A DNA stretch of 64,000 bases. Source: Albugo candida (Eukaryota). Below the pieces are notes generated by a model, which was not told where the DNA came from, did no database searches, and worked only from the letters and a program-made list of their open reading frames with translations. The position numbers and the translations under genes are program-made. Positions 22,033 through 27,138 of this stretch are shown here, piece after piece. Position 1 is the first letter of the stretch; each line of letters begins with the position of its first letter. The stretch covers positions 62,001-126,000 of the forward strand of contig JBDOQK010000014.1 of assembly GCA_040437565.1 (NCBI GenBank), given 5' to 3'.

Positions 22033-25000
22033 TCAGGCTTCGACCTGGTTGAAAGCGATGATAATGACACTCGTGTTATCGTGCGAGAAATATTGCTGCG
22101 CCTTGAGAATCAATTCCTGTGCGGCCAGCTGTACATCCCCATGCATCCTGAGCTTCTTTGCAATGAAATTGACAGCCTGTTGCGACGTAAGCACATCAAA
22201 AAGCCCGTCGCTCGCCAGTAGCAAAAACTCGTCCTCCGGGGTCACAACATGCTCATATACGTCGGGTGTCGCTATCAAATGTCCATCCTGCTTGTGTGCA
22301 AGATCCCCGAATCCTCGTGAGATGGCCAGAATACCGTCAAGCCTTCCATTATGCACAAAGCCTCCACTTTTTTCGATCCTTTCCTTCTCCGCAGAATTCG
22401 AGGCCTTATGATCCCGCGTGATTTCCCGAGCGATTCCATGCTTACTTGCAAGCACAGCTCGACAATCGCCGATATTGCCGACATATACCTTTGTACTCCC
22501 ATTACCAGTCATTGAATCTCCTTCCAAACAACAGGTTTCTATCATTTGCGTGTCGTTCTTTTCCTTGACGAGAATTGCGAATACTGCGGCTGCTCCCGAA
22601 AATGAGATTGGATGCAGTGTCTGACCGTATGTGCCTCCATTCTGAGCGGCTGAATCATTATTTTGCGTGGATGTACGTCCGGGCTGCCATCTTTGATTCT
22701 GACTTTGTAAGATCTCTGTATCGAGGCTGAGACAGCTCTCGAGAATGGCTTTCTCGGGCTGTTTCGTGAACGCTGGATGCGATACAACATGCTCCAGCAA
22801 TCTGCTTTGTAGTGTCACTGCTGTGTCATCGCCATTATGGCCATCAAATACCCCAAAGAAAGCCATGGATTCGTACGTTGTCGACAGTGATGAGGTATAC
22901 GCATCCAAAGCACAGGCTGCTGTCACGACACTTTTATCCTCCATGAACGCTCGGGATCCTCTGGCTTCCGCGTATCCCGTTCGAATACTCAGCATGAGAT
23001 TTTCGCGGATTTTGCTGCTTACATACACTTGTACGATGCTCTGATCACACTGCAAAAGACTCGAGTTGGCTGCAGATGCCAACAGACTCGCGACCGAATT
23101 CGACTTGGAGAGCCCGAGCCCTCCAAGTGGAGCGAGTTCTTCATCTTCTTCCAGTACGAGTTCCATACTATTTGGTGCTCCAATAAGCTCTTCAAACGTC
23201 TGATCCACATCCACATCGTCTTCGACATCACTGTAATCCGAGTCATCGCTCTGATTATCATCCGAGTCGCTGTCGAGCAACTCCATCTGATTGTCCTCTA
23301 CGGCGTACGACTTTCCCGAATCAATTGGACTCTTCATCGGATCATCTTCATCGTCTTCGATGTGTGTGACTTCCAGTCCTTCCAAATCGATATCTTTGCC
23401 GGCATCCGAAAAGACTTTGTCTTCTTTGCTGAGTAGCGATCGTCCACTGCTGGAATTCTGTTGGAAGCTGGAGCCGTACGAGCTGATGGAACTCGAGCTT
23501 TCCCGACCTTGCGAATCCTTGTTTTTGTGTCGCCCACGAGGAAGTTTCTTGCTTGCAGATAAAGTCGCAAGTAGTGATCTCGCTCCTTCCCGCGTACTCG
23601 TCGACGATAAGCCGGTATTGGATCCGCATAGAGTGTCAAGCATTGCGATGGATGGAATTGGTGCACGTGACGCAACTGAGAAGTCATGCTCACGCGCCTG
23701 AAACAGGATTTTTCGGCTCTGGTAATCGCCATCTTGATCCCGAAAGACTTCCGATGTGACCATAAGGAAATCTTTTTTCCTTGAGAGCGATCGTTTCATG
23801 AGAGTCGCATCCGTCTCCATCGTAGCCGACATCTGTGACTCGCTTGAGCTTCTCGAATGCATAGAGTTTGATTGTTTCGATTCGGGAAGACTCATGTCGC
23901 TCGATTCCGAATGTATGGACGCTGTACATTCGTGCATGCGGTTAATGTCCAAAAACGAGCTTTTCGAGAGTAATCGCTTTGAATGTTGCAAGCCTTTCTC
24001 AATCTCTTCGACTGCTTTCGGATCGGTAGCGTCCAAGTACAGTGCTCCACGTGGAACAGCTTCCATTGTCGTCCTCTTTGCTGAGGCTGCAGATGCCGAC
24101 GGCAACGCAACTGCAGGTAAAATGAGCTCACTGACCATTGCGCGATCGACCGATACGGCCATTCTCTTTTGCTCAAGCAGTAGATCTTTGCTCTTTTCTG
24201 ATAAATTGGTGTGGCCTTCCATGAGCTGAATGCGTTTATGTTGTCTCCACGCTCCAATAAGACTTGTCCCGTCATCGCTAACGCTGAGAGAAGCCCGACT
24301 CGAGCTTAGGAGCGGTTTGGCACGGAAGGTGCCCGAGCCGAAACCAGTTCGTCCGCTCTTGGACTCTGCACTGTGATTCCCGCTCGTTGTTCGCTGTAAT
24401 CCATTTTTGATAAGTAAATGCGCCTTCAAAAGGGATTCCGACAGACTTTGATCGATATGCTCAGGTATATTCCGAATTGCAAGCTCACTTTCATCGAGTG
24501 ATACGCTCAACAGCGAGTTCTCCATAGCCTCGCTGTTCGTGTTGGGAACAAGCGGCTCGCTTCCTTCTTTAGTGACCCATTCGTGCGTGAAACAACCTTG
24601 CAGGGAGATGCGAAGTTTGGGGTCTTTTGTGAGCATTCGTTGGAGTAAATTCTTCAAATGGGGATCCACGCTGGTGTCCGCTTCAGAGGGGAAACAAAGC
24701 TCGTCTTTTTGTACCTTTTCCGACAACACAATCTCATTGTCCGCGAGCCAAGGCGGATGTCCGATGACCATCATGTACAGCGTTGCTCCAAGAGACCAAA
24801 TATCAACCGAAGGACCGCGATAGGTGGCGTCGATATCAAACATTTCAGGGGCCATGAATGCTGGTGTTCCTTTGGCGCCAGACAGCGTTTCTGTCTCATT
24901 CATAATCATTCGTGCGGTCCCAAAGTCTGCGATTTTGGCAACACCTTCCTCGGAGACCAAGATATTTCCAGGCTTGATATCTCGATGGATGACTCTATGT

Positions 25001-27138: not shown

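Follow-up and report, generated by a model that had tools for sequence, protein, structure and literature searches.

A stramenopile-wide fusion of cyclic nucleotide-binding domains, a CaMKK-family kinase and a PP2C phosphatase, as encoded by one gene of Albugo candida

Introduction

A stretch of 64,000 nucleotides of Albugo candida DNA (GenBank assembly GCA_040437565.1, contig JBDOQK010000014.1, positions 62,001 to 126,000 of the forward strand; hereafter the window, in whose coordinates all positions are given) contains on its minus strand a long gene whose predicted product carries two cyclic nucleotide-binding (CNB) domains, a protein kinase and a PP2C phosphatase. The question raised by this locus is whether two opposing enzymes are made as one polypeptide and set by a cyclic nucleotide monophosphate (cNMP), and how far such a protein is new. 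The fusion is a stramenopile-wide variant of an already described cNMP-controlled kinase/PP2C switch, in an architecture without a described mechanism. The best explanation of the protein, at a probability of about 60%, is a cNMP-tuned kinase/PP2C switch on one polypeptide.

In Table 2 of the Phytophthora infestans kinome, cNMP-binding domains are entered for AGC and CAMK kinases, and PP2C domains for AGC, CAMK and OTHER kinases; the accessible text of that paper discusses only the plant-like form of the fusion, which is also present in oomycetes, with an inactive kinase (PMC3019232). A 2024 oomycete phosphatome reported five PPM phosphatases of Phytophthora sojae with a kinase domain, each also with a cNMP-binding domain, which were called bifunctional, had stage-specific expression and, according to the legend of Fig. 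S2, had one transcript each by read mapping; the accessible portion of that paper contains no biochemistry and leaves the kinase family unnamed (PMC10925823). The accessible portion of a 2026 preprint surveying TOR and AMPK had nothing on the fusion family, and literature searches found no functional study of the exact order CNB-CNB-CaMKK-PP2C. A first-pass annotation of the window had stated that no protein of this architecture had been characterized; this stood for the exact order as a matter of functional study, and did not stand for the combination of domains, which is listed for Phytophthora (Table 2 of PMC3019232; section 2.5 of PMC10925823).

Gene and Transcript

The open reading frame (ORF) at 22033..27138 on the minus strand (protein P0001) started with ATG, had no intron and encoded 1701 amino acids (aa) plus the stop in a single frame of 5103 nt without a stop codon, with an in-frame TAA two codons 5' of the ATG. 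The chance of an open frame of this length was roughly estimated as (61/64)^1701, or about 1e-35. The G+C content was 0.45-0.50 in the ORF vs about 0.40 in the flanks, and the protein was 85% identical over its full length to an Albugo laibachii entry.

None of the sequencing runs was on record as RNA, and where run X1 is called "RNA" its record only guesses. A contig of X1 of 6061 nt ran through 21291..27162 without a gap or joint, included the whole ORF and ended 24 nt upstream of the ATG. It skipped 21085-21136 (52 nt) and 21242-21290 (49 nt), which are both GT..AG on the plus strand and were both kept in a 71-kb DNA contig of run X10, and the depth of X1 was zero in the intergenic bins 20634-20950 and 27608-27924. 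Because of the two splices, the retention of both pieces in X10 DNA and the lack of depth in the intergenic bins, the RNA-like contig of X1 was read as cDNA and the gene as transcribed. Contigs of run X6 were identical to those of X1 and probably are the same data filed twice; run X5 consisted of low-depth fragments and was left out of the analysis.

Strain differences listed in the ORF were synonymous in 20 of 23 cases (13 of 15 for X10 and 7 of 8 for X1; nine more differences lie in the 9.5-kb stretch in addition to those listed), which points to purifying selection. Two of the non-synonymous changes, V548E and A1105D, were in poorly conserved segments. The third replaced the stop by Trp: in X10, the stop at 22033 was TGG instead of TGA, and the next in-frame stop followed two codons on, so that two codons were added. 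One transcribed intron-free gene encoding one polypeptide in the order CNB-CNB-kinase-PP2C was confirmed; the first-pass annotation had read the intron-free 1701-aa frame and its domains.

Kinase and Phosphatase Domains

The Pfam domains, with the kinase at residues 591-855, agreed in content and placement with the first-pass proposal, which corresponds to residues ~279-496 for the CNB domains, 590-856 for the kinase and 1383-1700 for the PP2C. The kinase contained K620, E644, H718-R-D720, N725, D738-F-G740, T758 and A763-P-E765, and none of its catalytic residues varied among the 35 aligned members of the family. The PP2C contained R1396, E1400-D1401, D1432-G-H1434, G1557-D1558, D1644-G1645 and D1687-N1688, which were invariant or at least 90% conserved over 35 aligned members. 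All catalytic motifs that had been named for the two enzymes were present and conserved in the 35 members, and by sequence both enzymes appear catalytically complete.

The kinase is, by sequence comparison, predicted structure and phylogeny, of the CaMKK family and not of the AGC group. A search of the PDB with the kinase domain gave CaMKK2 with 236.5 bits and CaMKK1 with 214 bits, followed by CDPK1 (150.6), AMPK (150.5), Ssp2 (~148-151) and LKB1/STK11 (147.6 bits), with no AGC kinase among the best 60 matches, and the Pfam scan of the protein found no AGC C-terminal tail domain. The AlphaFold2 (AF2) model of the kinase superposed on CaMKK1 and CaMKK2 in Foldseek with a template modeling (TM) score of 0.91-0.95 and a root-mean-square deviation (rmsd) of 1.6-1.9 Å at 40-42% identity, and the activation segment GTPAFMAPE was identical in human CaMKK2. 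In a kinase tree of 56 rows (IQ-TREE; rows P0108 and P0082 were removed beforehand for broken domain extraction), the fusion family and the metazoan and fungal CaMKKs made up one side of a branch with ultrafast bootstrap (UFBoot) 99 and SH-aLRT 87, and a separate AGC clade (100/98) united the plant PP2C-cNMP-kinase with PKG and the PKC-like rows; the rows of this tree did not include LKB1, AMPK or CaMKI, and these families were compared only by the PDB search scores. The kinase phylogeny had been proposed as a check of the first-pass view of a CaMKK-type, not AGC-type, catalytic domain, and it agreed with that view.

In the PDB, the PP2C matched PPM1B (9.2e-27). The modeled domain superposed on PPM1A and PPM1B (VIA-align) with Z 35.4 and an rmsd of 1.6-1.7 Å over 260-262 residues, and had low-confidence inserts near residues 1490-1510 and 1536-1545.

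Cyclic Nucleotide-Binding Domains

Pfam cNMP_binding matched two stretches (6.9e-41), and the pair of domains matched PKG and the R subunits of PKA in a PDB sequence search. Both cassettes of the window protein had canonical residues (Table 1). Among the 27 oomycete-type rows, the cassette Arg was present in 25 for CNB-A and in all 27 for CNB-B. The CNB-B cassette was present in six of eight distant members, in which it was the only cassette kept. Mean identity of the CNB domains in a family alignment of 38 rows was 0.77, vs 0.76 for the kinase. The cassettes of Plasmodium PKG, among the PDB matches, likewise had Arg-Ser/Thr. This Thr or Ser next to the Arg presumably favors cGMP, and with its PKG-like Arg-Thr the window protein may bind cGMP.

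In an Albugo paralogue pair (P0004 and P0005), the cassette Arg of CNB-A was replaced by His and CNB-B was intact; in this paralogue, one of the two sensor sites is perhaps nonfunctional.

The N-terminal region ahead of the CNB domains was poorly conserved, its sole conserved part being a short acidic motif ending in DWL near residues 161-180. An MGxxxS/T-type start was present in 25 of 50 family members (P0001-P0050), which fits the N-myristoylation pattern; many proteins of the fusion family may therefore be anchored to membranes. N-myristoylation of the window protein was rejected, as its start, MGKYAR, is off this pattern, and so is that of the A. laibachii orthologue.

A helix was predicted to connect CNB-B with the kinase, at positions 248-288 of the AF2 model, along which the predicted local distance difference test (pLDDT) dropped from ~70 to ~47.

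Linker Between Kinase and PP2C

The linker between the two enzymes had ~500 residues, 22% of them Ser or Thr, and was mostly unconserved (identity 0.19-0.23) and predicted with low confidence. Within it, four conserved modules were found that are new here and private to the fusion family (Table 1). Their identities are means over 38 rows, for which the kinase (0.76) and the PP2C (0.55) serve as yardsticks.

Module 1 lay shortly after the kinase, was predicted as helices (AF2 pLDDT 40-58) and was confined to oomycete-type members in profile searches. It was considered as a calmodulin-binding site and rejected on account of its acidic net charge. Module 2 was predicted as a helix with a pLDDT of ~60. 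In profile searches it had a colinear counterpart, at 13-29 bits, in P0040 and in the Cafeteria proteins P0041 and P0042. Module 3, a predicted hairpin, was the most conserved part of the protein, above both enzymes, and its strand DF[LVI]MVT was invariant, including the Thr. The hairpin was predicted in both AF2 models (pLDDT 39-66), and module 3 was colinear in P0042 (37.6 bits) and in P0041 and P0040 (~21 bits). The residues ahead of the invariant Thr may resemble those that precede the phospho-Thr in CaMKK substrates. Residues 1330-1339, in module 4, reached a pLDDT of 85 when modeled together with the PP2C.

Module 3 had 0 matches among PDB sequences at E <= 10, and the linker had no usable match in the ESM Atlas. 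When all of 1.84 billion representatives were scanned in HMMER with the linker, only eight matched, of which three were full-length family members, three were pieces with a kinase or PP2C by Pfam and two were short and contained linker modules alone. Because the HMMER scan and the PDB search gave no outside relatives, the modules are taken as belonging to the fusion family only.

Relatives and Spread of the Architecture

At E <= 1e-3, the region search matched 260 proteins. Among the best 120 of these, 45 non-plant proteins had Pkinase, cNMP_binding and PP2C in precomputed Pfam lists, and the notion of an unprecedented architecture was given up, as it is shared across stramenopiles. Carriers of all three families included Albugo, Phytophthora, Peronospora, Pythium, Globisporangium, Saprolegnia, Aphanomyces, Cafeteria and the brown alga Scytosiphon; Albugo was represented by the 85% identical orthologue and the paralogue pair. 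Of 24 relatives scanned with Pfam, 18 had the order CNB-kinase-PP2C, one had kinase and PP2C without CNB, four had no PP2C, and the plant protein (P0062) had PP2C-CNB-kinase. The order CNB-kinase-PP2C is kept across oomycetes and more distant stramenopiles. The window protein itself had the three families in this order and modules 2 and 3 in colinear positions, which places it in the fusion family. Databases name the members either "cGMP-dependent protein kinase", which is the more usual name, or "CAMKK/CAMKK-META protein kinase".

Searches with the kinase only and with the PP2C only, which were word-based and length-limited and can miss proteins, gave no convincing stand-alone oomycete copy. 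Among the best 120 matches of the kinase to proteins of 165-527 aa, the sole named oomycete match was a Phytophthora fragment of 341 aa (75% identity), and the rest were mainly animal CaMKK1 and CaMKK2. Short PP2C-only entries were on contigs of 1.6-4 kb or contained linker module 4, and P0250 began within a linker motif; because of the short contigs or the presence of module 4 these entries were taken as fragments of the fusion, except for P0253, which is ambiguous.

The entry P0032 of Aphanomyces astaci (2174 aa) also listed a myosin head (PF00063), and probably is a merged gene model.

Comparison With Known Systems

The closest functional parallel is the plant PP2C-cNMP-kinase (rice PKG; PP2C19/At2g20050 of Arabidopsis), which likewise joins a PP2C, two CNB domains and a kinase in one chain. 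Its order is PP2C-CNB-CNB-kinase, unlike CNB-CNB-kinase-PP2C in the window protein, and a different order in land plants had been noted at first pass; in P0062 the PP2C was at residues 112-358, the cNMP-binding domain at 490-582 and the kinase at 779-1015. The plant kinase grouped with PKG in the AGC clade, whereas the window kinase was in the CaMKK clade. The plant fusion scored 65.9 bits with its PP2C and 46.2 bits with its kinase against the window protein, and both scores were exceeded by those of a stand-alone plant PP2C (147 bits) and of an animal CaMKK (224 bits). Because its kinase is AGC and both its enzyme domains score lower than stand-alone relatives, the plant fusion is an independent assembly. 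For rice PKG, Shen et al. (2019) are reported to have found that cGMP raises the kinase activity and lowers that of the PP2C, with GAMYB as the substrate of the two (PMC11638329; PMC11775391). The principle of a writer and an eraser under cNMP control, which had been proposed at first pass, was thus already measured in rice (PMC11638329).

Animal CaMKK1 and CaMKK2 share with the window kinase the fold and the clade and differ in having neither N-terminal cNMP sensors nor a PP2C. From query position 53 to 62, the window protein had 8 intervening residues and human CaMKK2 (5uy6) ~27; the longer stretch is presumably the Arg/Pro-rich insert, located between beta3 and helix C, which the window kinase would lack. 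The calmodulin-binding segment of CaMKKs was not recognizable in the window protein in comparison with PDB constructs, which end near the C-terminus of the kinase.

PKG, like the window protein, has tandem CNB domains N-terminal to a Ser/Thr kinase and cassettes with Arg-Thr/Ser; its kinase is AGC, unlike that of the window protein, and it has no PP2C. Dictyostelium GbpC, which binds cGMP and has a non-AGC kinase, is presumably an exception to the rule that cNMP-gated kinases are AGC. GbpC is a Roco/LRRK-type protein with Ras, RasGEF and a TKL-type kinase, and has neither a CaMKK kinase nor a PP2C.

PPM1A, PPM1B and the plant clade-A PP2Cs ABI1 and HAB1 have the same PPM fold and metal-binding residues as the window PP2C (Z 33-35, rmsd 1.6-2.7 Å). 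They are stand-alone proteins, and the window PP2C was ~30% identical to its nearest stand-alone relatives, from which it also differed in its low-confidence inserts and in an acidic, docking-like motif at its N-terminal side.

Mechanism and Alternatives

In the proposed mechanism, binding of a cyclic nucleotide, which may be cGMP, at the two CNB domains would shift the balance between kinase and phosphatase. The likely direction, by analogy with the plant PP2C-cNMP-kinase, would be kinase up and phosphatase down. The kinase would write, and the PP2C would erase, phospho-Thr or phospho-Ser on a common set of targets. Because the kinase is a CaMKK by homology, the favored candidates for these targets are CAMK-group kinases, phosphorylated in the activation loop, with SnRK1/AMPK or CaMK-like enzymes as most likely examples. 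The linker modules, the hairpin foremost, would probably couple the two enzymes, whether by docking, by autoinhibition or by accepting phosphate internally. Cyclases, phosphodiesterases and kinases regulated by cNMP are present in oomycetes and mostly expressed in spores (PMC5322657).

Several points weigh against this mechanism. The AF2 model of CNB-CNB-kinase had a predicted TM score (pTM) of 0.42 and an rmsd of 21-25 Å to inhibited PKG, and with such values the model gives no inter-domain geometry in support of gating. No pseudosubstrate of the PKG kind came to light ahead of CNB-A, although no search aimed at one was made. One continuous molecule is not provable from the X1 contig, and its reading as RNA rests on the two splices. 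The plant analogy is, as judged from domain scores and clades, functional and not homologous. The phototropism phenotype of Arabidopsis PP2C19 required the PP2C domain, which by itself sufficed for it (PMC11775391), so that coupling of the three parts is not always needed. The searchable literature held no biochemical result for any member of the fusion, and an older report cited in PMC5322657 found cAMP and cGMP unchanged during zoosporogenesis. Finally, LKB1 of P. infestans phosphorylates SNF1 in vitro (PMC9811325), and for this reason the window kinase is not needed to explain phosphorylation of the SNF1 T-loop.

The main rival to a cNMP-tuned switch acting on common targets is a self-resetting timer, in which the PP2C removes in cis the autophosphates of the kinase, at linker Ser/Thr residues or at the hairpin Thr, and a pulse of cNMP is turned into a kinase pulse of fixed length. 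This is possible, if clearly short of even odds. The high Ser/Thr content of the linker and the position of the hairpin with its invariant Thr as the most conserved part of the protein agree with it; colinearity of modules 2 and 3 from oomycetes to Cafeteria argues for an intramolecular role, and a covalent tether would be expected to favor reactions in cis. On the other hand, the hairpin was predicted at low pLDDT, and neither AF2 model docked it with confidence.

A narrower alternative to a switch with a broad target set is that the protein writes and erases the activation-loop Thr of SnRK1/AMPK specifically, a target suggested at first pass, with cNMP replacing Ca2+/calmodulin in the step from CaMKK to AMPK. 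It appears rather unlikely. Membership of the kinase in the CaMKK family is in its favor; CaMKKs signal to AMPK, and PP2Cs act on the T-loops of AMPK, Snf1 and SnRK1. CaMKKs also act on kinases of the CaMKI/IV type and on PKB, however, so that a different kinase may be the target. The best 120 short matches included no stand-alone CaMKK of an oomycete, although a word-based search of short proteins can overlook some. SNF1 of P. infestans was recognized by an anti-pThr172 antibody, in agreement with this alternative (PMC9811325); the LKB1 result given above counts against it.

It is improbable that the CNB domains are not cNMP gates and serve as a scaffold or dimerization unit, with control exerted elsewhere, for example by Ca2+/calmodulin at module 2. 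Module 2, a conserved helix of basic character that contains a Trp, lies downstream of the kinase, as does the calmodulin-binding segment of CaMKKs. The His of CNB-A in P0004 and P0005 and the retention of the CNB-B cassette alone in distant members also agree with a non-gating role. Against it, both cassettes of the window protein were canonical, that of CNB-B was kept in nearly all rows, and the CNB domains were as conserved as the kinase.

That neighboring genes were read as one ORF, or that an enzyme domain is a decaying pseudo-enzyme, is hardly credible: some database models are split or truncated (PP2C-only P0246-P0253, kinase-only P0121), but the PP2C-only entries are fragments, with P0253 alone ambiguous, the frame is open throughout, the RNA-like contig has no joint, the catalytic residues are invariant and the polymorphism is mostly synonymous.

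A more specific version of the cNMP-tuned switch, which is speculative and of low probability, is that stramenopiles rewired the CaMKK step: cNMP, in place of Ca2+/calmodulin, would drive a CaMKK-type kinase onto SnRK1/AMPK or CaMK-type kinases, the tethered PP2C would erase the same phosphate, and the hairpin with its Thr would couple the two enzymes as an internal phospho-switch resembling an activation loop, or as a dock. If true, the protein would be a self-contained bistable module, set by cNMP, which joins second-messenger signaling with energy or spore-stage signaling. If the proposed mechanism of a cNMP-tuned switch holds, the protein would be a second, independent invention of a cNMP-set kinase/phosphatase switch, on a CaMKK-type rather than an AGC kinase, conserved in a whole branch of a eukaryotic supergroup that includes major pathogens of crops and fish. 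It would then offer an entry point into oomycete cNMP signaling, and "cGMP-dependent protein kinase", the name common in databases, would have to be corrected. The linker modules are testable handles on the coordination of two opposing enzymes in one chain.

Neighboring Genes

Coordinates of the domains and modules, and of genes elsewhere in the window, are shown in Table 1.

Table 1. Features of the window, with residue numbers referring to the CNB-CNB-kinase-PP2C protein.
Feature	Position	Strand	Residues	Description and basis
N-terminal region	26356..27138	-	1-261	Net charge -16, Ser/Thr-rich; mean identity 0.18
CNB-A	25963..26331	-	~270-392	Cassette 352-367 with Gly-Glu and Arg-Thr; Pfam; AF2 pLDDT 75-95
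CNB-B	25579..25962	-	~393-520	Cassette 471-486 with Gly-Glu and Arg-Thr; Pfam, PDB, AF2
Connecting helix, CNB-B to kinase	25492..25614	-	~509-549	Predicted; AF2 model m1759e19e43de
CaMKK-family kinase	24574..25368	-	591-855	Pfam Pkinase 6.6e-64
Linker module 1	24394..24498	-	881-915	Acidic, net charge -3; identity 0.65
Linker module 2	24109..24267	-	958-1010	Basic, net charge +2, Trp-containing, helical; identity 0.65
Linker module 3	23659..23796	-	1115-1160	Predicted beta-hairpin; identity 0.86
Linker module 4	23119..23238	-	1301-1340	Acidic, DYSDV..DVDVD..TF..L then ..EE.AP; identity 0.56
PP2C/PPM phosphatase	22042..23046	-	~1365-1699	Pfam 2.6e-50
Paf67 (PF10255)	29231..30097	-		Pfam, profile positions 116-397 only; upstream exons likely
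Leucine carboxyl methyltransferase (LCM)	31519..32610	+		Pfam
RsmB/F-type methyltransferase with CCHC zinc knuckle	16580..17977	+		Pfam

A convergent neighbor on the plus strand, at 21001..~21900, contained the two short GT..AG introns skipped by the X1 contig (21085-21136 and 21242-21290), and its ORF at 21304..21867 had no Pfam match. Because the X1 contig joins both genes, the 3' ends of this neighbor and of the kinase-PP2C gene appear to overlap.

The upstream neighbor, an ORF at 27453..28622 on the minus strand, had no Pfam match, and a tandem-repeat search upstream found nothing. Within this ORF, at ~27610-27864, there was a run of N (34 X in translation) flanked by an exact duplicate of ~50 residues, and the X10 DNA contig skipped those 255 nt. 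The N run and the duplicated flank look like a scaffold gap, an assembly artefact in the upstream neighbor.

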